DNA of 64,000 bases from Thermoproteota archaeon (GCA_021324265.1 JAJPJK010000008.1:33041-97040); one strand, 5' to 3'. Positions 2,777-32,299 are shown, numbered from the stretch's first letter. The notes: a model not told the origin generated them from the sequence alone. A program made the numbers and translations.

Positions 2777-3694
2777 TTATATTTCGTATCCTGCTATTCT
2801 CGTCTTAGTCTTGAAAATCCTGCCCATCCTGTCTATGGTGAGTTCTATTTCTTCGCCGAAACCCTTGCTTTCCAAAGCTACCTGAAGCTCTATTGGATTA
2901 CTAACCTTCTTGCCATCCGCCTCGAAAATTATATCGCCTAACATGACTCCTGAATCCTTTGCAGGACTCCTAGGAGAAATTCTTATTACTAGTAAACCTT
3001 CAGATCTAGGAAGATCATAATACGAGGCCATAGCTTTATTTACAGCCATTACGACCATTCCTAAATAGGGTCTTATATATTTCCCAAACTTCGTATATGA
3101 ACGTAGTAAACCTTGAATAAGCTCGGAAGGAATTGCGAAACCTATACCTTGGGCAAAAGGTATCATAGCAGTAACAATTCCTATAACTTCACCTTTGACA
3201 TTCACAAGTGGGCCTCCGCTATTGCCAGGATTAACTGCAGCATCAGTCTGCATTACATATAAAGCCTCACCAGTAGGTGAAACGATAGTTCTCCCTGTTG
3301 CACTAACGACACCAAGCGTAACGCTCCTTAAACCCAAAGGATTACCTATAGCTAGCACTAGGTCTCCGATGCTATAATCGGTAGATAACTTGAGCGCAGA
3401 TATGGAGAGCTTAGACTTAAGAAGTGCAAGATCGTAAAATGGATTGATAGCAACGACTTGAGCGCTAGCAATGTTTCCTTCCTTATCGATTATCGCGATT
3501 TCCCTAGCATTCCTAATAACATGATATGAAGTAAGGAAATGGTTTTCAATAACTGAAAATCCAGAACCAATTCCTTCCCTGAGAGATGGAGAGAGGAATT
3601 CATCAAGTGCTACTTCTCGAGTTAATATGGCAACGACGGATTTGCTCGTATTCTCTGCCAATTCCTTTATTTCCTGATTAATTTTTTCCAACAT
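2777..3694 (-). CDS. HtrA/DegP-like trypsin-fold serine protease with C-terminal PDZ
   Basis: GNSGGPLVN S1 catalytic serine motif, His/Asp context upstream, and a PDZ-like C-terminal segment (GDIIFEADGKKV). Confidence 0.85.
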   Translation of the reverse strand: MLEKINQEIKELAENTSKSVVAILTREVALDEFLSPSLREGIGSGFSVIENHFLTSYHVIRNAREIAIIDKEGNIASAQVVAINPFYDLALLKSKLSISALKLSTDYSIGDLVLAIGNPLGLRSVTLGVVSATGRTIVSPTGEALYVMQTDAAVNPGNSGGPLVNVKGEVIGIVTAMIPFAQGIGFAIPSELIQGLLRSYTKFGKYIRPYLGMVVMAVNKAMASYYDLPRSEGLLVIRISPRSPAKDSGVMLGDIIFEADGKKVSNPIELQVALESKGFGEEIELTIDRMGRIFKTKTRIAGYEI

Positions 3695-3726: not shown

Positions 3727-4851
3727 CTATTGTGGAAGTTCAAGTACTTCTTTGTAAAGCTCAAATATCTGATCAGCAATGATTCTGATATCAAATCTCT
3801 TTACAGTTCTCAACGCATTCACTGAAAGACTCTGATACTCTAAAGGATTAAGCTCAAGCATCTTATTCATTGCTAAGGCTAACTCTTTAACACTGTCCGC
3901 CTTCACTAACATACCGTTCTTCTCATTTACTACACTAGGAATTCCTCCTACCTGAGTGGCAATTACAGGCTTGCCGCAGGCAAAAGCCTCTAAAATCACC
4001 ATTCCAAAAGGCTCAAATCTTGATGGAAGCACAAGAAATCTACAATGTTGGTAATATCTTATCAATTCATATCTTGGAATTCCAACTTTCAGTATCACGT
4101 TATCTCTGAGCTTTAATCTATCAAGCATGTCTTGGATATACTGCCTTGAACCTTCGCCGATTATAACAAGACGTACTTCCTTATGCTTTTTAATGACTTC
4201 AACAAAGGCCTTAAGCAATATATCTATTCCCTTTTGATCAATATCAAATCGACCGACAAAAAGGATATAGTCTATACCCAAATCAGGAGTTTGAATTTTA
4301 AACCTTTCAAGGTTAAGACCAATTGGAATGTACGAGAGATTTTTTCTAGCTATTCCACTGCGAATGAGATAATCTTTTTCGACCTCGCTAATGGCGATGA
4401 TTCTATCTGCATAACGATAAATTTCCCTTGCGATTACATTCATCAATCTTCTTTTAACACTTTTCCTTCCAGGATCAGAATGAGTTTGGATGATATGCCT
4501 TACTCCTTTTAACGCCTTGCAAACAGCACCTATGTAGGTTGTGAAATAACCAAATGAATGTGAATGTATTAAATCTATGTCCTCTCTCCTTAATACTTCA
4601 GAAAGCATATTAAAAGAAAAATATCCTAAGCCTCTAGGAAGTAAGGGCATGCAATTATGTGCGCTAAAGCGCTTAACATATGGGAAATCCTTGATTATAT
4701 TTAAACGTTCTTTTGTTTCAAAATTATAAAAATCAGTTGTAAAAATCTCAACATCTATACTATTCATTTGAACTTGCACAAGATCAAAAACGAAATTTTC
4801 GACACCTCCTATAGAGGGTAAAAACTTTGGTACAAGATGAACAACTTTCAT
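3727..4851 (-). CDS. Glycosyltransferase family 4 (GT-B, retaining)
   Basis: EPFGMVILEAFACGKPVIAT is the GT4/GT1 EX7E motif region. The likely start is MKVVHLVPKF at 4851, an internal Met of the longer ORF, which would make it abut the upstream membrane-protein gene. Confidence 0.85.
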   Translation of the reverse strand: MKVVHLVPKFLPSIGGVENFVFDLVQVQMNSIDVEIFTTDFYNFETKERLNIIKDFPYVKRFSAHNCMPLLPRGLGYFSFNMLSEVLRREDIDLIHSHSFGYFTTYIGAVCKALKGVRHIIQTHSDPGRKSVKRRLMNVIAREIYRYADRIIAISEVEKDYLIRSGIARKNLSYIPIGLNLERFKIQTPDLGIDYILFVGRFDIDQKGIDILLKAFVEVIKKHKEVRLVIIGEGSRQYIQDMLDRLKLRDNVILKVGIPRYELIRYYQHCRFLVLPSRFEPFGMVILEAFACGKPVIATQVGGIPSVVNEKNGMLVKADSVKELALAMNKMLELNPLEYQSLSVNALRTVKRFDIRIIADQIFELYKEVLELPQ

Positions 4852-5951
4852 GATAAGATTCTGAAAACTAAGATGAAAATAGCGATAAGTATCAAAAGAC
4901 CCGACAACAAAGACCAAATAGGAAAAGCGTAATAACTCCCTATAACTCTAAGCAACACCCCAATATTGTAAATGACTAAGGCCTCAAATCTCATTGATTT
5001 AAGTGGATCAGTTTTAGAAAAAAGATTAGACACGAATATTGGAGCGAAAGCGAAAATGGTATTACCTATAAACCCCAAGGAAACACTATGAATGAACATA
5101 TCAATATTTATAATGTTTGAAACGAAGAATAGTAATCCTAAAATAATCCAAATGTAGGACACAATCATTGCGCCTTGATTATAATATACTAATTTTTTTT
5201 CTCTTGGACCAAATTTATGTATAGTAAGTGGCCTTTTACTTTCAAAGATCCTTAACGAAAATGCCATAATTATAAAACTTACAAAAAATGATAGTAGTGA
5301 ATAATACAAATTTAAAAAAAGAGTCAGATGAAGGAAAAGCGAAAGAAGAGACACGATCATGAATAATAGGGAACAGTGTGTTAAAATTCTATAGTTGATT
5401 GTCTGCCTAACAGCAACCATCCTCACTTCTACTGCATAAATTAAAGAACCAATAAAACCCAAGAAGAAAAGGAGTTGACTTTCAAACGTTAATTGCCCAA
5501 TAATAAGCAAAGAAAAAGAAAAAAGGAAAAAGGAAAGGCTAGACAAAATGAAAAAAGGATCTGCTTCAGGAAAATTAGCCTTTATCAAGGAGAATCTGAT
5601 AAAGTAAAATACTAAAAATAAAGAAGAAATTAGTAAAATTAAAGCACTAATTTCTATAAAAAAAGTATTAAAATAACTGATAATAAATAATATAAATGAT
5701 AAATCATATAATATTAGAACTGAAAGAATTACATTTTTCATATATATATTTGAAGACTTGAATTTAGGCAACATATTCAAAGCTATTCCAGACACGAAAT
5801 AAACAAGGGAGTAAATCTGGAAATAAGGATGCCAATATATTAACAAGGAAGGATTTCCAGCTCTAGCAATGTATAAAAGGCCCAAAATGGTTCCTACGAG
5901 GAGTATCGAAAAAGCTTTGTATAAAAATAGACGCTCAAGTGTTGGCTTCAT
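4848..5951 (-). CDS. Polytopic (about 10 TM) membrane protein, possibly a glycan polymerase/flippase-type partner of the adjacent GTs
   Basis: 367 aa, almost entirely hydrophobic helices with no soluble domain, in an operon-like arrangement with GT4. Confidence 0.5.
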   Translation of the reverse strand: MKPTLERLFLYKAFSILLVGTILGLLYIARAGNPSLLIYWHPYFQIYSLVYFVSGIALNMLPKFKSSNIYMKNVILSVLILYDLSFILFIISYFNTFFIEISALILLISSLFLVFYFIRFSLIKANFPEADPFFILSSLSFFLFSFSLLIIGQLTFESQLLFFLGFIGSLIYAVEVRMVAVRQTINYRILTHCSLLFMIVSLLSLFLHLTLFLNLYYSLLSFFVSFIIMAFSLRIFESKRPLTIHKFGPREKKLVYYNQGAMIVSYIWIILGLLFFVSNIINIDMFIHSVSLGFIGNTIFAFAPIFVSNLFSKTDPLKSMRFEALVIYNIGVLLRVIGSYYAFPIWSLLSGLLILIAIFILVFRILS

Positions 5952-10365: not shown

Positions 10366-10596
10366 ATGGGAAGAACTCAGCCTTCATTGACGAATTCGAT
10401 AGATATCGAGCTTAGCAAGCTTAACAAGATAGCAGAAAAACTTAGAGATGAAGAATTGGCTGATATCATCAGAAATTCCAAGTTATATGCGAGAAAGATA
10501 CAGGAAGCTGCGCAAGATGAGCTCATAGATCCCCTCGAGGTGATCATGCTTGCAATCCTCATGTCAAGTAGGCTACGTAATAGACGCGATACCTAG
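10366..10596 (+). CDS. Small charged helical hypothetical protein; its 3' end overlaps the PolB2 start in another frame
   Basis: Taking MGRTQPSL as the likely start of the 106-aa track ORF, the ORF shows coding-like charged/helical composition. It has no recognisable domain. Confidence 0.3.
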   Translation: MGRTQPSLTNSIDIELSKLNKIAEKLRDEELADIIRNSKLYARKIQEAAQDELIDPLEVIMLAILMSSRLRNRRDT

Positions 10597-12268
10597 ATAT
10601 AATAGAATAGAGCTCATACTGAATGGCTTCCGCAGTGTAAGTGTTAGGACTACATACCCAATTTACGTGATCACCGATGACCCATATAAGGTGCTCCAGA
10701 TACCCGATATAGTGAGTTATAAAGAAGAGGAATGGAGGACGCTTGATAATAAACGCGTAAAGCTCTACAGGTTCGAATCCAGATCAATAGAAGCATATTA
10801 TTTCTTGAGGGACAAAATGCAAGTTGTGAACGAGTTCCCTAGCATAATTTCTCAAACACTTTACAGACTAAGGGCGCTACCTATGCATAAAATCAAGGTA
10901 GAGAATGACATGGTAGAGTTGCTCGAAGAAGAGCGTTCGCTTGAATTCCCAGAAATAGATTTCGCAGAAATAGAACTCGAAGACTGGTTCGGCAAATCTC
11001 CAAGAGGAAAAAGATATAATCTATTCATAAACGGAAAGCTCAGGGAGAGCGGCGATATCAGGGATCTATACGTTGAAGCCGACGTAGTGGAGTGCTCTGG
11101 AATAAGCTATGAAAAAGCTAAAGCGGCGGTTAAAATATTGAAGGAAAAGAAGCGCTCGCCTGTAAGCGTTAAGGGCCTTATAGAGTGGAGTAAAACAGCT
11201 AGAGTTCCTTTGAAGGAAATTCGATATGCTACGATAGGTAAGGCATTGACTACCAACGAAGCATGGGTAGCTTTGAAGAAAAAGTATCTAATACCCAAGG
11301 TAAAGCCAAGCGTTGAGCAGAATAAGGATCTGAACGAGTTAATGTTCGCTGATAAAGGGGGAATTATACTTTTTCCAAACGCGGGAATACATGAAAACGT
11401 GTATCAGCTAGATTTCTCTTCAATGTATCCTTCAATTATAGTCAAGTACAACATTTCAGCTGAGACTGTTAATGCATGCGAAGATATAGTCACGCCTTTG
11501 CATAGCATATGTCTAAAAGAGAAAGGTATTGTGCCAGAAGCGCTAGAAGCATTGATAGAGAGGAAGAAGAAATTAAAGGAAATAGATGAAGAACGAGCCG
11601 AAGCCATAAAATGGATCCTCGTTGCCTCATTTGGATATCTAGGATATAGGAACTCGAAATTCGGCAAGATAGAGGCTTATGAGATGGTAACATACTTTGC
11701 AAGGGAAACGATGAGGAAGGCAATGGCCATAGCTAAAGAGAAAGGACTTGAGGTTCTTCATGGAATTGTAGACTCACTTTTTATCAAAGGCGATAAAATA
11801 GATGAATTCATTGAAGACGTAAATAGGGCTACAGGCTTGAACATCAAGATCGAATCAGAATACGAATGGATCGTATTCACATCTACAAGAGAAGGACAAC
11901 CGCATCCACAAAGATACTTCGGAAAGATAAGGGGTAATGGGATGAAGGTCAAAGGCGTGATAAAGGAAAACATGCCGAACCTTGTGAAGGACTTTCTAGA
12001 ACATGTCTTCAAAGAACTAGAACATGCCCATAATGCAAGCGAGGTGAAGGAAATTTTGAACAGCTTAGAGCTTAGCGAATACAAACGCAGAGCATTTTAT
12101 GGCAAACCCATAGATTACGTGATCTGGATAAAAGACAGGCCATATATAAAGAATTCTAAAGGCTTTTACGCAGCCGAACTCGGCTATCGAGACCATGACC
12201 CATACTACTACCTAGCATACCTAGAGCGAACATATGAAGATCTACTTAGATGGATAAATGGAGACTAA
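10550..12268 (+). CDS. polB2: Family B DNA polymerase paralogue PolB2 (Dpo2-like), exonuclease-less with degenerate motifs
   Basis: Motif A is intact: YQLDFSSMYPSII (DxxSLYPS). Motif B is degenerate: KWILVASFGYLGY (N to A). Motif C YGDTDS is replaced by HGIVDS, retaining a single Asp. No Exo I/II/III motifs are present in the roughly 280-aa N-terminal region. Confidence 0.8.
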   Translation: MQSSCQVGYVIDAIPRYNRIELILNGFRSVSVRTTYPIYVITDDPYKVLQIPDIVSYKEEEWRTLDNKRVKLYRFESRSIEAYYFLRDKMQVVNEFPSIISQTLYRLRALPMHKIKVENDMVELLEEERSLEFPEIDFAEIELEDWFGKSPRGKRYNLFINGKLRESGDIRDLYVEADVVECSGISYEKAKAAVKILKEKKRSPVSVKGLIEWSKTARVPLKEIRYATIGKALTTNEAWVALKKKYLIPKVKPSVEQNKDLNELMFADKGGIILFPNAGIHENVYQLDFSSMYPSIIVKYNISAETVNACEDIVTPLHSICLKEKGIVPEALEALIERKKKLKEIDEERAEAIKWILVASFGYLGYRNSKFGKIEAYEMVTYFARETMRKAMAIAKEKGLEVLHGIVDSLFIKGDKIDEFIEDVNRATGLNIKIESEYEWIVFTSTREGQPHPQRYFGKIRGNGMKVKGVIKENMPNLVKDFLEHVFKELEHAHNASEVKEILNSLELSEYKRRAFYGKPIDYVIWIKDRPYIKNSKGFYAAELGYRDHDPYYYLAYLERTYEDLLRWINGD

Positions 12269-26474: not shown

Positions 26475-26514
26475 ATTAACCTTTTATTTTCTATTTTTTT
26501 AATAAGTATAGAGA

Positions 26515-27468
26515 ATGGAAAATCGTAGCTCAACGATTCTCGAGACTCAAATAAGCATCCTTGCTTCACTAATCCAGGAAAGAAGCTCAAAAGATGATAA
26601 GATCATACCGACGCTCAATCCCATTTTAGGCATATCTTATAAAATAGGTGAAATAGATTTTTCCTATGAACAGATTAAAGATTTAGAAGAAAAAGGTCTA
26701 CTTCAAAGGATAGGCTTGAAATCTTTCGTAGCATGCCCAATATGCAGCTCAATAATTGTTAATTTAAATCTTGTCTGTCCAAATTGTAAAAATCAATCTC
26801 TTGAAAGAAAAGAATTCATAATACACTATGAATGCAATTACATCGATGAAATGTCGAAGTTTCTAAAAGATGAAGAGCTTACATGTCCTAAATGTAAAAA
26901 GTCATTGAAAAAAGTGGGGATCGATTATGGTAAACCTGGCAAGTTGTATAAATGCAGCAGTTGTGGAGAAATTTCGCAGTATCCATTAGTGGTAATAACA
27001 TGTTTTAATAATCATATATCCAAGATAGATGAAGCCGAATTGATATCATACCCTATTTATAGGATATCATCATCACAGTTATCTTCTACCACGCTTGAAG
27101 TAATAAAAATTTTAAATCAATACTTTTTACAAAGCTATCCTAATTTGAAAGTTGAGAGTCCAAAAACTATTTACCTAAATCCTAAGGAAAAATATATGAT
27201 CCCATTATATATTTCTGATACCTACACTAATAAAAAAATCTATATTGACTTTATAAATAACGAGAAAGAATTTGAAGAAAAAGCATTAAAACTATTGAAA
27301 ATTGCTTTACTTGATAATGCTAAAATTATAGTTGTAATAAATAATTATACTATAGATCCTGATTTATTTGATCCAAAAAGAATTAGATTACTTAATATTT
27401 ATAGTAAAAATATTGAAGAAATATCAAAATTATTAATCAATGAAATAGAAAAGATTCTTAAACAGTGA
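26515..27468 (+). CDS. Cytosolic wHTH-like plus tandem zinc-ribbon protein (copy 1), partner of the membrane GT2 synthase
   Basis: No TM helices. The N-terminal ...LEEKGLLQRIGLKSF looks like a winged-helix recognition region. Four Cys pairs (CPICSS, CPNCKN, CPKCKK, CSSCGE) and conserved blocks HYECNYI, VGIDYGKPGKLYKC and NNHIxKIDEAE are present. Its stop overlaps the GT2 start (27465/27468). Confidence 0.55.
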   Translation: MENRSSTILETQISILASLIQERSSKDDKIIPTLNPILGISYKIGEIDFSYEQIKDLEEKGLLQRIGLKSFVACPICSSIIVNLNLVCPNCKNQSLERKEFIIHYECNYIDEMSKFLKDEELTCPKCKKSLKKVGIDYGKPGKLYKCSSCGEISQYPLVVITCFNNHISKIDEAELISYPIYRISSSQLSSTTLEVIKILNQYFLQSYPNLKVESPKTIYLNPKEKYMIPLYISDTYTNKKIYIDFINNEKEFEEKALKLLKIALLDNAKIIVVINNYTIDPDLFDPKRIRLLNIYSKNIEEISKLLINEIEKILKQ

Positions 27469-28799
27469 ATCTTAGGAGAATTATCTACTTTTCAATTTTA
27501 TTAGTTTTAATTATTTTCTCTATGCTTTTTCTATTAAGACAATTTTTGGTATTTCTTGCTTATACTATTACTATAGTTTACACTATTTGGGGAATTTATC
27601 ATCTCATTTTATTCTTTTATGGACTTGGAGAACCGTTTGAACCAAAAAACAAATCTAGTCTACCTAAAATCTCTGTAATAATACCTTCTAGAAATGAGCC
27701 AATACTAGGCAGAACGATTGAAACAATTGTTCAACATGTGGATTATCCACTAAACAAAAAGGAAATTGTGGTCGTTACAGAAGACCCTCTTAGTGAAAGG
27801 ATTGCTTTCTGGTATCAACAGTCATACCCAAATGTGGTAAAGCTTCTAATGAGAAAAGAATTTTTCCCAACGAAACCTAGCGCGCTAAATGATGCTTTCC
27901 ATTTTACAACAGGTGATATTGTAGGCATCGTAGATGTTGAAGATATTTTAGAAAGAGATGCTTTTAAAAAAATCTCCAGTGCAATGGAAGGTCATGGTTT
28001 TGATATTGTTCAAGCATTGCTCAGAATCTCAAATGAAAATGACAGCTGGATAACAAAAATTTTCGCAATGGAATATGCGGGATGGTTTAGAATAATGTTG
28101 AATGGAAGAAGTAAACTCGGTTTATATACGCCTCTCGGAGGTACTGGCAACTATTTCAGAAGGAATTTGATAGGATATGTTGGAGCTTGGAATCCAATAA
28201 ATTTAACTGAAGATGCAGAGATTACAGTGCGTTTCGTTTTAGCACAACGTAAAGTGGTGGTAATAAACGTGCGTCAATGGGAAGAAGCACCAGTAACTTT
28301 CAAAGCTTGGTTAAAGCAAAGGACAAGATGGTTTAGAGGTTGGTTGCAAACGTTATGGAGCTATTCTGGTTTAATTTTTAAACCTTGGGCCGTAAGGAGA
28401 ATCGGCTTTTTCACTTTATTCAGCACGATTGTAATGCTAATTGCTCCTCTTCTTGTTGTTTTCAATTGGGTTGCTTATTCTTTAACAATTTTTTGGCTGT
28501 TAGAGGCATATGACATCCTTCATACTCGTCTAATGTCGGGTACATTTCCTTCGTTTGCATTCTTTCCTTTACTTTTCAACTTTCTATACTATTTGATTTG
28601 GCTTTATGGTGCTAAACTCGAGAAAATAGGAAAGAAAAACTATCTCTATTTACCACACATGATATTCTATATGAACTTCATGATGCCCCTTGCAAGCCTA
28701 AGAGCACTCTATCAAGAGATATTCAAACCCATATCTTGGGAAAAAACTGAACACCCAGGAAGAGGTGTCAGGTGGGTGGTAACAGAAAAAAATAAATAA
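27465..28799 (+). CDS. Processive membrane glycosyltransferase family 2 (PgaC/NodC/hyaluronan/cellulose-synthase-like), copy 1
   Basis: Two N-terminal TM helices, a GT-A domain with VDVEDI (DxD), TED, the QxxRW motif QRTRWFRGW, and four to five C-terminal TM helices. About 444 aa. Confidence 0.8.
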   Translation: MNLRRIIYFSILLVLIIFSMLFLLRQFLVFLAYTITIVYTIWGIYHLILFFYGLGEPFEPKNKSSLPKISVIIPSRNEPILGRTIETIVQHVDYPLNKKEIVVVTEDPLSERIAFWYQQSYPNVVKLLMRKEFFPTKPSALNDAFHFTTGDIVGIVDVEDILERDAFKKISSAMEGHGFDIVQALLRISNENDSWITKIFAMEYAGWFRIMLNGRSKLGLYTPLGGTGNYFRRNLIGYVGAWNPINLTEDAEITVRFVLAQRKVVVINVRQWEEAPVTFKAWLKQRTRWFRGWLQTLWSYSGLIFKPWAVRRIGFFTLFSTIVMLIAPLLVVFNWVAYSLTIFWLLEAYDILHTRLMSGTFPSFAFFPLLFNFLYYLIWLYGAKLEKIGKKNYLYLPHMIFYMNFMMPLASLRALYQEIFKPISWEKTEHPGRGVRWVVTEKNK

Positions 28800-28923
28800 T
28801 AAAATATTTTTTATTTTAGCCTGTAAAAATTAATTATTATCTTTCTTTGATACTATATCAATAGCTACAAAAATAATTTTAGATAACACATATAAAACTC
28901 GGGAAATAAATCTATATGGAATG

Positions 28924-29556
28924 CTAAAATGTCTCTTCGTATATTGCATTCCAAAATTCTAGTTCATATTTTTGAATGGTCAACGCAAGTAAAGGAATCT
29001 CTTTGTATTCCTCTAAGCTGTACTTCTCCAGAATCTTTAGCGCAAAATACTCGAGTTCTCTATCCCATTTAGCTTCTACAAAAAAAGGTAGATATAGGTT
29101 GTAGTTTTTGTTTATGAGTAAACCTATTTTATTGATATTTTCTATAAATATTGGAAAGTTGATCAAAATTAGAATTATTTGCTCAGGTAATGAACGGAAA
29201 TATGCTATATAAAAAAAGAAGTGGGTAAAGGCTACCGCTCTAGGATTTGGGACGATCGTCTCTTTTTTGATCCCAAGCTTATCCAAAGATTCATCTACTT
29301 TCTTAATTGCTTCTTGATGACTGATTATCAGTTTGAGGAAGAAATCGTTATCAGGATATTCGGATCGAGAATACATAAGTGCTAGAGCTTTTGAATCACT
29401 TCTAGCGATATAGTATTGTTGTTGAAGAAGATTTCTTATTTTGTCAATAGAAATCTTACCTTGGCTGAGATCTTCTATAAATCTATGGCGCGAAATTTTT
29501 AGGTTTATTTCTTGAAGTTCATATCTGAGCTTTTCTAGAAATTCCAACGGTTTCAT
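28924..29556 (-). CDS. TenA/thiaminase-II family (heme-oxygenase-like fold) protein
   Basis: The N-terminal pattern HRFIEDLSQGKISIDKIRNLLQQQYYIARSDSKALALM matches the TenA hPFhxxLxxGxLxxxxFxxYLxQDYxYL...ALAL signature. Confidence 0.55.
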   Translation of the reverse strand: MKPLEFLEKLRYELQEINLKISRHRFIEDLSQGKISIDKIRNLLQQQYYIARSDSKALALMYSRSEYPDNDFFLKLIISHQEAIKKVDESLDKLGIKKETIVPNPRAVAFTHFFFYIAYFRSLPEQIILILINFPIFIENINKIGLLINKNYNLYLPFFVEAKWDRELEYFALKILEKYSLEEYKEIPLLALTIQKYELEFWNAIYEETF

Positions 29557-29894
29557 AAAATAAAATTATATGCAAGACAAATAATTTAGAGTCTAGATCT
29601 GCTTTCAATACCTTAATAAAGGTAGTCCTTTATTGAGACACACTCTTCGTAGCTGCGTTTATAGCCAGTATACCGAACATTAAGAAAAGCAGTTAACTAA
29701 AATTGTTTGCATAATAACTTGTACCAAAGCCATTATCCTGAGTCAGCCATCCAACTTAGCCTTAATCGCCCTTGCTAAAGATTCATTGAAGCATCTAACT
29801 AAAGCTTTTTCCTTCATAACTGAAAACGATTCGTACTTAGAAAATACATCAACTAACAAAAAGAGATGATGCTACAGTTTACAGAAACAATTTC

Positions 29895-29989
29895 CCCATG
29901 AATTTTTTAATTTTTTTAAAAATCTTCCCCTTTTTTTTGAAAAATAATAAAAAAATTTTTTTAAAAAAAGATAAAACAATTTTCACAGC
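29895..29989. promoter_or_regulatory. Extremely AT-rich tract with long homopolymeric A/T runs immediately upstream of the second ZnR-GT2 module
   Basis: The sequence aatttttttaatttttttaaaaatcttccccttttttttgaaaaataataaaaaaatttttttaaaaaaag ends about 20 nt before the 29990 start codon. Confidence 0.4.
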
Positions 29990-30958
29990 ATGCAACTGGA
30001 ACGATTGCATGTTGGAAATGAAGTTAATTTGAATTATCAGGAGGGGGATATGATAATCGGATTGTTACAAGGAATTAAACCCGATGAAGAATTGATCCCT
30101 ATTTATAACCCCGTTTTAGGTATTTCCTATAAGATTAAAGGTATAGATTTAATGTTAGAACAACTCGAGGAGCTTGAGAATAGAGGTATACTTGAGCGTG
30201 TTGGTATAAAATCGTTTCCTATTTGTCCTTTCTGTAATACTTCGTTATTCAAGCCAAACATAGTATGCCCCTCATGTAAATCACCTTCTTTGATAAAATC
30301 TGAATTTTTAGTACATTACGAATGTAATTATATTGGGGAAATTTCTGAGTTTCAGAAAGAGACAAATATTTTTGTTTGTCCAAAATGTAATAGACAACTA
30401 AAAAGAGTAGGGATAGATTATGGCAGACCAGGTAAACTCTATAAATGCAAAAAATGTAATGAAATAAACCAATATCCTTTAATTGAACTTGAATGTACAA
30501 ACAACCACATATTTAAGATTGACGAGGCTGAAATGAGGCAGTATCCGATATATAAAGTATCCATTCAACGTAAAATACCCTTCATCACAGAAATATATGA
30601 AGAACTCAAAACTGCATTAAAATATTTTTCAGAAAATTTAACAATTAAATACTTAGAAAGCATAAAAATTGATGAGAATCAAATATATAACATTCCAATT
30701 TCAATAACCGAAAATAATAAAAAGATTAAAATTTTTATAGATTTTATACTAGATGAAAAGGATATCGATAAAAAAATAATAAATATATTTAAAACTATAT
30801 TAAAATTTGATGTGATATTTATCCTAGTTTTAAGAAGTGATCTTGTCGATACTGAGATATTTAATCCAAAGAAATTCACTGTTTTATATATCAAAAAAAT
30901 TGAAAAAAATGAAATTATTGCAAGGCTTCTAGGTGCTATATTTAACAAAATCATTTGA
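29990..30958 (+). CDS. Cytosolic wHTH-like plus tandem zinc-ribbon protein (copy 2, paralogue of 26515-27468)
   Basis: About 55% identical to copy 1 by eye. Shared blocks include NPVLGISYKI, HYECNYI, VGIDYGRPGKLYKC, NQYPL, NNHIFKIDEAE and the same four Cys pairs. Confidence 0.55.
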   Translation: MQLERLHVGNEVNLNYQEGDMIIGLLQGIKPDEELIPIYNPVLGISYKIKGIDLMLEQLEELENRGILERVGIKSFPICPFCNTSLFKPNIVCPSCKSPSLIKSEFLVHYECNYIGEISEFQKETNIFVCPKCNRQLKRVGIDYGRPGKLYKCKKCNEINQYPLIELECTNNHIFKIDEAEMRQYPIYKVSIQRKIPFITEIYEELKTALKYFSENLTIKYLESIKIDENQIYNIPISITENNKKIKIFIDFILDEKDIDKKIINIFKTILKFDVIFILVLRSDLVDTEIFNPKKFTVLYIKKIEKNEIIARLLGAIFNKII

Positions 30959-32299
30959 ATGAAAAAGAAGTCTCTTTATTTTATTATTTTATTATTATTA
31001 ATATGCATACTTATTTTATTTAGTCTAAGGCCATTTATTATATTTCTAGCTTATTTTATTTTAATTATTTATACTTTTTGGGGAATATATCATATAGTTC
31101 TCTTAATTTTTGGATTAAGATCACCCTTCCAACCTAGATTAAATCCAATCTCGTACCCCAAAATTTCAGTAATAATACCTGCTAGGAATGAAATAGTTTT
31201 AGGAAGAACAATTGAAACAATACTTCATGATGTGAAGTACCCATTAGGAAAGAAAGAAATAATAGTTGTAACAGAGGATTCGTTATGTGAAAGAATTACT
31301 CTATGGTATCAACAAAAATATCCAGAAATTATAAAATTGTTAAAGAGGAAAGAATTCTTTCCCACGAAACCAAGCGCTCTTAATGATGCTTTTCAATTTG
31401 CTACAGGCGAGATTGTAGGAATTGTAGATGTTGAAGACATATTGGAAATAGATGCTTTTTATAAGATTGCATCTGCTATGAAAGGTCACGATATAGATAT
31501 AATTCAAGCAATACTAAGAGTATCCAACGAAAATGATAGTTGGATAACTAGGATTTTTTCAATGGAATATGCAGGTTGGTTTAGGATCATTCTCAATGGT
31601 AGAAGCAAAATGGACCTATTTACACCCTTAGGTGGAACAGGGAATTATTTTAAAAAGGAACTAGTCAAGTTTGTAGGAGGTTGGGATTCTCTTAATTTAA
31701 CAGAAGATGCAGAAATCACTGTGAGGTTCACATTATCAAAGAGGAAAGTCGTTGTATTAGATCTTAGACAATGGGAAGAAGCACCAGTAACTTTCAAAGC
31801 TTGGTTAAGGCAAAGGACAAGATGGTTTAGGGGTTGGATGCAAACATTTTGGAGCTACTTTAATCTCTTATTCAAGAGATGGGCAATCAAGAGAATAGGA
31901 TTCTTTAACATTCTGAGTATAATGATAATGCTTATTGCGCCATTTCTAGTTATACTTAATTGGGTTGCATACTCTTTAACAACCTTGTGGTTGTTAGAAT
32001 ATTTTAGGATATTACATACTAACGTAATGGCAGATACATTTCCTTTCTTCGCAATAGCTCCTACCTTATTTAATATTCTTTATTACTACATATGGCTAAA
32101 AGGAGCTAGTTTAGAAAAGATAGGAAAGAAAAATTACCTATACATTCCTCATATGATATTTTATATGAATGTTATGATGCCATTGGCAAGTCTAAGAGCC
32201 TTATACCAAGAAATAACAAAACCAATTTATTGGGATAAAACAGAGCATGATGGAAGAGGAGTTAAATGGATTACAGTGGTCGGTAAAACTAATCAATGA
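30959..32299 (+). CDS. Processive membrane GT2 synthase, copy 2 (paralogue of 27465-28799)
   Basis: Same architecture, with QRTRWFRGW and VDVEDI. It lies immediately adjacent to its partner gene (30958/30959). Confidence 0.8.
   Translation: MKKKSLYFIILLLLICILILFSLRPFIIFLAYFILIIYTFWGIYHIVLLIFGLRSPFQPRLNPISYPKISVIIPARNEIVLGRTIETILHDVKYPLGKKEIIVVTEDSLCERITLWYQQKYPEIIKLLKRKEFFPTKPSALNDAFQFATGEIVGIVDVEDILEIDAFYKIASAMKGHDIDIIQAILRVSNENDSWITRIFSMEYAGWFRIILNGRSKMDLFTPLGGTGNYFKKELVKFVGGWDSLNLTEDAEITVRFTLSKRKVVVLDLRQWEEAPVTFKAWLRQRTRWFRGWMQTFWSYFNLLFKRWAIKRIGFFNILSIMIMLIAPFLVILNWVAYSLTTLWLLEYFRILHTNVMADTFPFFAIAPTLFNILYYYIWLKGASLEKIGKKNYLYIPHMIFYMNVMMPLASLRALYQEITKPIYWDKTEHDGRGVKWITVVGKTNQ

Follow-up and report, generated by a model that had tools for sequence, protein, structure and literature searches.

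What is a small cysteine-rich protein doing beside a membrane glycosyltransferase, twice over, in the genome of a Thermoproteota archaeon? The question is raised by a 64,000-nucleotide stretch of DNA (GCA_021324265.1, JAJPJK010000008.1:33041-97040; hereafter the window, with positions counted from its first letter), in which two gene pairs lie on the + strand. The upstream gene of each pair encodes the small protein, partner 1 (317 amino acids, 26515..27468) or partner 2 (322 amino acids, 29990..30958), and the downstream gene encodes a family 2 glycosyltransferase (GT2), either GT2-1 (444 amino acids, GTG start, 27465..28799) or GT2-2 (446 amino acids, ATG start, 30959..32299). An open reading frame call confirmed all four genes where a first-pass annotation of the window had placed them. 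Its description of the pairs as paralogous and alike in architecture also held, with 44% identity between the two small proteins (BLASTP, E 3e-78) and 72% between the GT2s (E 0), similarities that put the paralogy of both gene sets far above chance. As had likewise been noticed, the stop codon of each partner gene overlaps or abuts the start of its GT2 gene: the partner-1 TGA and the GT2-1 GTG share a 4-nucleotide overlap (GTGA), and the partner-2 TGA directly abuts the GT2-2 ATG (TGAATG). Judged by these junctions, the paired genes are translationally coupled or nearly so. Our answer, to which we give even chances, is that each pair is an autonomous two-gene operon for a membrane GT2 and a dedicated cytosolic protein of the TackOD1 family.

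The assignment to TackOD1 comes from profile searches. Both small proteins match the Pfam family TackOD1 (PF18551) over residues ~50-180, partner 1 with 116.7 bits and partner 2 with 109.8 bits (E 1.6e-31) against a cutoff of 32, and the domain is present in all homologs found. By this measure the small protein is clearly a member of TackOD1/PF18551/arCOG06883, 'Thaumarchaeal output domain 1' (PMC5847659, PMC4858521), whereas the first-pass annotation could place it in no described family. In the defining paper, Galperin et al. (2018) present TackOD1 as a response-regulator output domain of TACK archaea that occurs alone, as REC-TackOD1 or as REC-wHTH-TackOD1 (wHTH, winged helix-turn-helix), term its function 'obscure', and liken its eleven conserved cysteines, arranged as five CxxC and one HxxC, to the Zn-binding insert of PriA helicase (PMC5847659). 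Makarova et al. (2016) note TackOD1/arCOG06883 in thaumarchaeal type IV pilus loci (PMC4858521). An exhaustive HMMER search put the family at 2,040 clusters (50% identity) at E<=1e-3 and at 34 clusters at E<=1e-30, with many matches spanning the full ~320 amino acids.

The TackOD1-GT2 pair is conserved and inherited as a unit

The first three homolog contigs all carry TackOD1 followed directly by a GT2 ortholog on the same strand, and TackOD1 lies directly upstream of GT2 in 4/4 Thermoproteota loci from GTDB metagenome-assembled genomes. The pairing is also found for more distant family members (P0006 and P0030, about 28-32% identical). A metagenome scan for TackOD1 loci, made with an alignment of 15 closer sequences, showed the pairing kept in 49 of 52 loci; since two of the rest lie at contig ends and one is a fragment, the pairing holds in 49/49 informative loci. 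Looked up in reverse from the GT2 orthologs of Nitrosocaldus, Nitrososphaera and Calditenuis, TackOD1 is directly upstream in 3/3, and the wider neighbourhoods of these three pairs are mutually unrelated. All TackOD1 representatives that could be placed, down to E~1e-46, are GT2-linked. Of 44 TackOD1-GT2 junctions, 23 overlap, whereas 4-22 nucleotides separate the genes in 20 and 72 nucleotides in one. Chance adjacency is rejected on the strength of the 49/49 informative loci and the reverse look-ups. Conservation of the pair as a unit extends over both Nitrososphaerota and Thermoproteota, in keeping with the earlier proposal, made from the window alone, that the two genes form a tightly coupled, co-duplicated unit. 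That proposal was to fall if the small protein belonged to a known family with no linkage to GT2 genes; the family is indeed known, but the linkage is strongly conserved.

The history of the two proteins was compared across 46 non-identical TackOD1-GT2 pairs. Mean identity is 33% for the partner (46% in the Zn core and ~25% in the N- and C-terminal parts) versus 55% for the GT2, and the distance matrices of the two proteins correlate with a Pearson coefficient of 0.95, a value reached by 0/999 Mantel permutations. Such a correlation is what co-inheritance as a unit predicts, without proving contact. For both proteins the window pairs (W1 and W2) are each other's nearest full-length relatives, and the pair on contig L003 is nearer to pair 1 than to pair 2, which argues that the module was duplicated as a unit before the lineages split. 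The duplication had been described as tandem, which strictly it is not; the pairs are co-duplicated but are separated by a TenA/THI-4/PQQC-family gene on the - strand (28924-29556; PF03070, E 2.8e-13), which scores far under the thiaminase II equivalog cutoff, and by a very AT-rich spacer of 433 base pairs with long A/T runs (29557-29989) between this gene and pair 2.

The partner combines a zinc-ribbon core with a degenerate Mrr-like domain

An AlphaFold2 (AF2) model of the partner built on 104 sequences is confident (predicted local distance difference test score, pLDDT, 91.6) and, together with the sequence, describes a soluble protein in three parts: an N-terminal segment of helix and small sheet (partner 1 residues 1-62), the TackOD1 Zn-ribbon core with 12 Cys/His ligands (residues 63-184, nucleotides ~26701-27066) and a degenerate Mrr-like domain with a PD-(D/E)xK fold (residues 185-317, nucleotides ~27067-27465). 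The ligands are C74/C77, C88/C91, H104/C107, C124/C127, C147/C150 and C163/H167 in partner 1 and C79/C82, C93/C96, H109/C112, C130/C133, C153/C156 and C169/H173 in partner 2. All 12 positions are invariant across the GT2-linked clade, as four CxxC, one HxxC and one CxxxH, and they suffice for three predicted Zn sites; the four CxxC pairs recognised at first are present, but the list was incomplete. The last pair is CxxC in the broad TackOD1 family and CxxxH in the GT2-linked clade, with the ligand count still at 12. Other residues distinctive of the GT2-linked subfamily are Y105-E106, G139-x-P141-G142, Q155, H167 and D172-E173, and the blocks HYECNYI, VGIDYG(K/R)PGKLYKC and NNHIxKIDEAE do occur in both window copies, as previously noted. 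The Zn-ribbon core matched no solved structure in the fold search, and comparison of the partner sequence with PDB chains gave nothing meaningful.

The N-terminal segment had been called winged-helix-like, a description that found no support. No HTH family matched the window partner proteins at E<=1 in a Pfam profile search, and the model shows a long helix (H3-23), three short strands and a second helix (H51-59), which is not a canonical wHTH; the three-helix bundle and beta-wing of wHTH regulators are absent. We take EQIKDLEEKGLLQRIG in the partner only to resemble a recognition-helix/wing segment.

The C-terminal domain was assigned by fold search, with matches to Bax1, Can2, restriction enzymes and AF1548, and we found no mention of an Mrr-like domain of TackOD1 proteins in the available portions of the two family papers (PMC5847659, PMC4858521). 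The broad TackOD1 family conserves a GxSGxxH...D...KxxD motif in this domain, most of which is replaced in both window copies (L221, P223, K224, Y227, I263 and L266). D245 (T1 numbering), the only acidic position of the domain that is fully conserved in the GT2-linked clade, is kept. Because most of the motif residues have been replaced, the domain is probably non-catalytic in the window copies, where it would serve as a binding module. The partner is not strongly basic overall (isoelectric point, pI, ~7.4-7.9), with a mildly basic Zn core and C-terminal domain (pI 8.5-9.1).

The GT2 belongs structurally to the cellulose-synthase-like class

The GT2s match the Pfam families Glyco_tranf_2_3, Glyco_trans_2_3 and Glycos_transf_2 (PF13641, PF13632 and PF00535), and there are weak matches to Glyco_transf_21 (ceramide glucosyltransferase) among them. 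The AF2 model of GT2-1 (pLDDT 89.2; predicted template modelling score 0.88) comprises two N-terminal transmembrane (TM) helices (TM1, 3-22; TM2, 24-53), a GT-A domain (69-273), an interface helix (279-304) and three to four C-terminal helices (315-348, 363-385 and 392-420); only ~4-5 TM helices are predicted, fewer than in the BcsA channel. GT2-1 carries the motifs TED (105-107), D157-V-E-D160, TED (248-250) and QRTRW (285-289), and GT2-2 has the same four. The QRTRW motif and the N-terminal TM pair were thus as first described, but there is no strict DxD, its place being taken by DVED, a DxxD variant. Across 62 GT2 orthologs D107, D157/E159/D160, E249/D250 and R286/R288/W289 are invariant and Q285 is present in at least 90%. 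A C-terminal tail, W425-E-K-T-E-H-x-G-R-G in GT2-1 and W-D-K-T-E-H-x-G-R-G in GT2-2, is likewise conserved, with W425-x-K427-T428-x-H430-x-G432-x-G434 invariant in the same set. The GT2 has the fold and the catalytic motifs (TED, DxxD, TED, QxxRW) of inverting membrane GT2 synthases.

In Foldseek comparisons BcsA ranked top against the GT2 model (query TM-score, TMq, 0.63-0.66; E ~1e-15), PcManGT reached a TMq of 0.61 and a target TM-score (TMt) of 0.76, hyaluronan synthases reached a TMq of 0.5-0.55, and soluble GT-A enzymes scored much lower. These matches place the GT2 structurally in the membrane-embedded cellulose-synthase-like class. At the level of orthology the picture differs: the window GT2s score 65-67 bits with PgaC_IcaA (TIGR03937; cutoff 422), 35-36 bits with NodC (TIGR04242; cutoff 550) and 24 bits with CelA/BcsA (TIGR03030; cutoff 699). 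Orthology to PgaC, NodC or BcsA is rejected on these NCBIfam equivalog scores, and since all three cutoffs are missed by far, the GT2 has no ortholog among the characterised synthases. The likeness to PgaC, NodC and hyaluronan synthase proposed by the first-pass annotation is sound for the structural class but not for the PgaC and NodC equivalogs. A Pfam profile search found no PilZ domain in the window GT2s. GT2 orthologs, 49-71% identical, occur widely: in Nitrososphaera, in Nitrosocaldus, in Caldarchaeales/Calditenuis and in other Thermoproteota.

The public annotation of a protein identical to GT2-1 (P0168) begins at an internal ATG at codon 20, giving 425 amino acids, which would remove TM1 (window positions 27465-27521). 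The upstream GTG start is supported because orthologs keep the first 19 residues, which form TM1.

TackOD1 relatives occur in signalling, pilus and polysaccharide contexts

Elsewhere in the family, the pair is found among signalling genes, a context that, like the Mrr-like domain, was absent from the first-pass annotation (REC, GGDEF, NitrOD5-like and Ras-like GTPase components). REC genes adjoin the TackOD1-GT2 pair in 8 loci, and 8 loci have, immediately 5' of the pair, a gene for a NitrOD5-like protein or for a REC-NitrOD5-like fusion (such genes, REC fusions included, are at L008 5702-6004, L014 4641-4982, L017 3705-3998, L070 150-464, L022 586-1560, L023 1391-2356 and L034 3962-4879). In a Nitrososphaerales-like clade the gene directly 5' of TackOD1 is a conserved one of ~100-113 codons, whose products are 35-52% identical to each other and match NitrOD5 (PF11537), another thaumarchaeal output domain, over the full length, though weakly and below the cutoff. 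The NitrOD5-like domain is fused C-terminally to a REC receiver in three loci, and one TackOD1-GT2 locus carries a full histidine kinase. This arrangement suggests a relay from REC through NitrOD5-like protein and TackOD1 to GT2 in the Nitrososphaerales-like clade.

Type IV pilus loci are the setting of more distant TackOD1 members, 26-30% identical over the aligned part. As stand-alone proteins or as REC-TackOD1, these accompany a T2SSE gene and two T2SSF genes; no T2SSE or T2SSF genes adjoin the window pairs. On contig L058 (397-6027) a TackOD1-GT2 pair is followed ~1.2 kb downstream by a second, divergent TackOD1 beside a T2SSE pilus ATPase, so that both known TackOD1 contexts occur side by side. 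Fusions in the family include REC-TackOD1, TackOD1-GGDEF, UDP-glucose/GDP-mannose dehydrogenase-TackOD1 and HhH-TackOD1-Mrr_cat. Fusion-bearing members are P0114 (743 amino acids), P0067, P0016/P0017 and P0064, with an N-terminal dehydrogenase, a C-terminal GGDEF or the HhH-TackOD1-Mrr_cat arrangement, and TackOD1 with a C-terminal GGDEF diguanylate cyclase occurs in bacteria, including Enterovibrio.

A further locus (L072 844-12194) contains a distant TackOD1 (E~1e-32) that overlaps the gene of a Ras-like small GTPase carrying an inserted Zn ribbon. Its neighbours are the gene of a GT2 that resembles chitin synthase and is 28% identical to that of the window, a PMT_2 (GT-C) gene and a Roadblock/LC7 gene, and the locus also holds a 1005-amino-acid polysaccharide-deacetylase/DUF2334 protein. 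It looks like an exopolysaccharide locus with MglA/MglB-like signalling.

A proposed dedicated GT2 subunit and its alternatives

We propose, with confidence and doubt in equal measure, that the cellulose-synthase-like GT2 has in the TackOD1 protein a dedicated cytosolic subunit, regulatory or accessory in function. Translational coupling would yield the two proteins in roughly equal amounts, and the TackOD1 protein would dock on the cytosolic face of the GT2, where the invariant W-x-K-T-x-H-x-G-x-G tail, which resembles a gating-loop motif, is a candidate docking site. Once docked, it would switch or tune glycan synthesis on a signal. In some relatives the signal may arrive by phosphorelay, through REC and REC-NitrOD5-like proteins; candidates for the input in the window are the Zn/Cys-His core (sensing redox state or metal), the degenerate Mrr-like domain or another ligand. 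The product would most likely be a beta-linked surface glycan or exopolysaccharide.

More broadly, TackOD1 might be a general adaptor linking signalling to the cell-surface machines of TACK archaea, pili as well as glycan synthases, in a manner PilZ-like in function and non-homologous in origin. Such an adaptor could receive its input from two-component systems (REC and NitrOD5-like relays), from small GTPases or from the Cys/His-metal centre within it, and its targets could be a cellulose-synthase-like GT2 for one subfamily and the type IV pilus ATPase/platform for another. The full analogy, with TackOD1 as an archaeal PilZ-type counterpart in which a Zn-stabilised cytosolic module takes signals and directly binds surface-building membrane machines to turn them on or off, is one we put forward tentatively and regard as the less probable side of the question.

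Several observations weigh against a dedicated regulatory subunit. Any two genes that are inherited together should show correlated distance matrices, and 46 pairs do not suffice for covariation at the level of residues; the physical contact proposed above is an inference. Neither REC nor NitrOD5-like genes were found in the window with our own hidden Markov models, and a histidine kinase was likewise absent. With REC missing from the window, the signal might enter here through the Zn/Cys-His core or through some other ligand. Zn ribbons, the Mrr-like fold, HhH-TackOD1-Mrr_cat and REC-wHTH-TackOD1 are also typical of nucleic-acid-binding proteins, conservation of the GT2 at 50-70% identity across a very broad clade fits housekeeping better than an accessory role in biofilm, and since the GT2 model is matched about equally well by PcManGT and by BcsA, a processive mechanism and an exopolysaccharide product are conjectural.

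The nucleic-acid-binding features lead to the alternative that fares best, which we nevertheless consider unlikely: the TackOD1 protein would be a DNA-binding transcriptional autoregulator encoded by the first gene of the operon, with no contact to the GT2, and its pilus-locus relatives would regulate pilus genes. The original definition of TackOD1 is, after all, that of a response-regulator output domain, a class whose members mostly bind DNA; REC-wHTH-TackOD1 as a published architecture and the comparison with the PriA Zn insert (PMC5847659), the restriction-endonuclease/Mrr-like C-terminal fold, the HhH-TackOD1-Mrr_cat relative and the mildly basic Zn core and C-terminal domain all point the same way. 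Set against this, the window proteins have neither an HTH Pfam match nor a three-helix wHTH in the model, and their overall pI is near neutral. A non-rigorous search for operator-like inverted repeats or a shared motif upstream of both window pairs returned only AT-rich low-complexity matches, and a similarly non-rigorous search saw no common motif across 46 homologous upstream regions. Fusions to GGDEF and to a UDP-sugar dehydrogenase would be unusual for a DNA-binding domain, and the strict one-to-one adjacency on the same strand, with overlaps, in dozens of lineages is tighter than in typical regulator-target pairs.

Improbable to a slightly greater degree is that the GT2 is a non-processive housekeeping enzyme that adds sugar, for example, to a membrane lipid (a glycosyl-GDGT or archaeol head group) or to a dolichol-linked N-glycan intermediate, with TackOD1 as an accessory, stability or regulatory factor and no role in exopolysaccharide or biofilm. 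The phylum-wide conservation of GT2 orthologs at 49-71% identity is unusually high for a gene of exopolysaccharide synthesis, sequence comparison with the PDB finds PcManGT (6yv7) alone, which also fits the model with a TMt of 0.76, and the weak ceramide glucosyltransferase matches and the small number of predicted TM helices compared with the BcsA channel fit this alternative as well. The glucosyltransferases for archaeal glycolipids, moreover, are still unidentified (PMC9385802). The best structural matches, however, are the processive synthases BcsA and hyaluronan synthase, and the QRTRW and TED motifs together with the layout of two N-terminal helices and a C-terminal TM/interface-helix set resemble class I hyaluronan synthases, PgaC and NodC. 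Polysaccharide production is suggested by the two diverged paralogs in one genome and by relatives associated with deacetylase, GT-C or UDP-sugar dehydrogenase functions, and a housekeeping enzyme has no obvious need for REC-linked control. It is highly improbable, despite the fold matches to Bax1, Can2, restriction enzymes and Mrr-like AF1548, that the small protein works as an enzyme of DNA processing or defence with no tie to the GT2 beyond the shared operon: an active nuclease is rejected on the loss of catalytic-type residues from the window copies, where the GxSGxxH...K..D residues are mostly replaced, D245 alone is fully conserved among acidic C-terminal positions, and the linkage is to GT2 and pilus genes and not to defence genes.

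Probable promoters, surroundings and archaeal origin of the window

Sequence inspection revealed one TATA-box-like element on the + strand before each pair. TTTTTTTAATAA (26494..26505) starts 21 nucleotides 5' of the pair-1 ATG and probably is the promoter of a short-leader or leaderless bicistronic mRNA, while TTTTTTTAAAAAAA (29956..29969), which starts 34 nucleotides 5' of the pair-2 ATG, probably provides a separate promoter for pair 2. The flanks of the pairs hold unrelated housekeeping genes: on one side those of an ABC-2 transporter, of cytochrome oxidase and of a heme-O-synthase-like UbiA, on the other a LysX-type Lys/Arg cluster.

The window contains a third, more divergent GT2 with a QxxRW motif, at 1381-2775, as the first reading had reported. 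This protein (PF13632) has QRSRW, is 28% identical over 79 amino acids and has no TackOD1 neighbour. Its gene sits between those of an MscS-like channel (495-1109) and an HtrA-like protease (2777-3694), with a GT4 gene nearby (3727-4917). On contig L002 (5100-7219) GT4/GT20-like and MscS-like genes lie ~3 kb downstream of a TackOD1-GT2 pair, and the two neighbourhoods may be remnants of shared synteny. An open reading frame of 572 codons at 10550-12268 (+) resembles archaeal family B DNA polymerase models in their central part only and falls well short of the cutoffs; it may be a short or inactivated PolB paralog. No tRNA genes and no Rfam families at the gathering threshold were found in the whole 64 kb, so that neither scan supplied a taxonomic marker.

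Identical proteins at NCBI (HLI45666.1 and HLI45668.1) are labelled 'MAG TPA: Geobacterales bacterium'. A bacterial origin is rejected on the archaeal-type PolB, the oxoacid:ferredoxin oxidoreductase and the relatives, all of which are Thermoproteota or Nitrososphaerota. Since both gene content and relatives are archaeal, the label is probably a binning or labelling error.

Novelty and significance of the module

The components belong to known families; a dedicated TackOD1 partner for a cellulose-synthase-like GT2 is previously undescribed. The first-pass annotation had likewise stated that no such GT2 partner was described for archaea, and we found no publication describing TackOD1 as one. 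In the two TackOD1/arCOG06883 papers and the other literature found by the searches, neither the strict TackOD1-GT2 module nor a recurrent TackOD1 link to polysaccharide genes appeared as a described feature, and the GT2 itself was likewise without a description there. Strict pairing with a GT2 across the phylum of ammonia oxidisers and their thermophilic relatives provides the first concrete, testable functional hypothesis for TackOD1, and the pair is small enough for direct tests.

To our knowledge, regulation by cyclic di-GMP (c-di-GMP) and PilZ has not been found in TACK archaea. The pair is an entry point to the control of surface glycans and biofilm in these organisms, and if the adaptor reading were true, no regulated exopolysaccharide synthase module would have been identified earlier in Nitrososphaerota and Thermoproteota. 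If the GT2 should instead be the missing archaeal glycolipid glycosyltransferase, a recognised gap would be filled (PMC9385802).

Comparison with known systems

The window proteins resemble the TackOD1 proteins described in the family papers in their Cys/His-rich multi-Zn-ribbon core and, as stand-alone proteins, represent one of the published architectures. The contexts given there, which do not define the domain, are REC fusions and type IV pilus loci, whereas the window subfamily is strictly GT2-paired and has CxxxH in place of the last CxxC. With Mrr_cat/PD-(D/E)xK domains (AF1548, the Bax1 nuclease domain and Can2/VC1899) the C-terminal domain shares the restriction-endonuclease-like alpha/beta fold, but the window copies have not kept the residues of catalytic type.

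Among glycosyltransferases of solved structure, PcManGT (PDB 6yv7), a membrane GT2 of Pyrobaculum calidifontis, belongs to the same archaeal super-lineage, has a 'minimal cellulose-synthase-like fold' and is the sole PDB chain detectable by the GT2 sequence (E 4e-7 over ~100 amino acids). In a 2020 J Mol Biol article by Gandini et al. it is reportedly an N-glycan mannosyltransferase, and we know of no TackOD1 partner for it. The two enzymes differ in that PcManGT is 17% identical and ~350 amino acids long, the window GT2 being ~90 residues longer, and the aligned stretch begins after the two N-terminal TM helices of the window GT2. Class I hyaluronan synthases, NodC and chitin synthases share with the window GT2 the N-terminal TM hairpin, GT-A domain, interface helices, C-terminal TM helices and QxxRW, at only 14-16% identity and a TMq of 0.5-0.55. 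The conserved W-x-x-T-containing motif near the C-terminus of the GT2 recalls the WGTR/WGTSGR-type loops of these enzymes.

Further parallels are the bacterial systems BcsA-PilZ, PgaC-PgaD and Alg8-Alg44. The bacterial processive synthases use a c-di-GMP-responsive partner or domain, whereas no second messenger is implicated for the window pair, whose regulation is inferred, and the window partner, cytosolic and predicted to bind Zn, has no homology to PilZ, PgaD or Alg44. What these systems and the window pair have in common is a GT2 in the membrane that carries TED and QxxRW motifs, has a BcsA-like fold and is matched to one small dedicated protein without catalytic function; relatives of the window partner are fused to GGDEF or REC.

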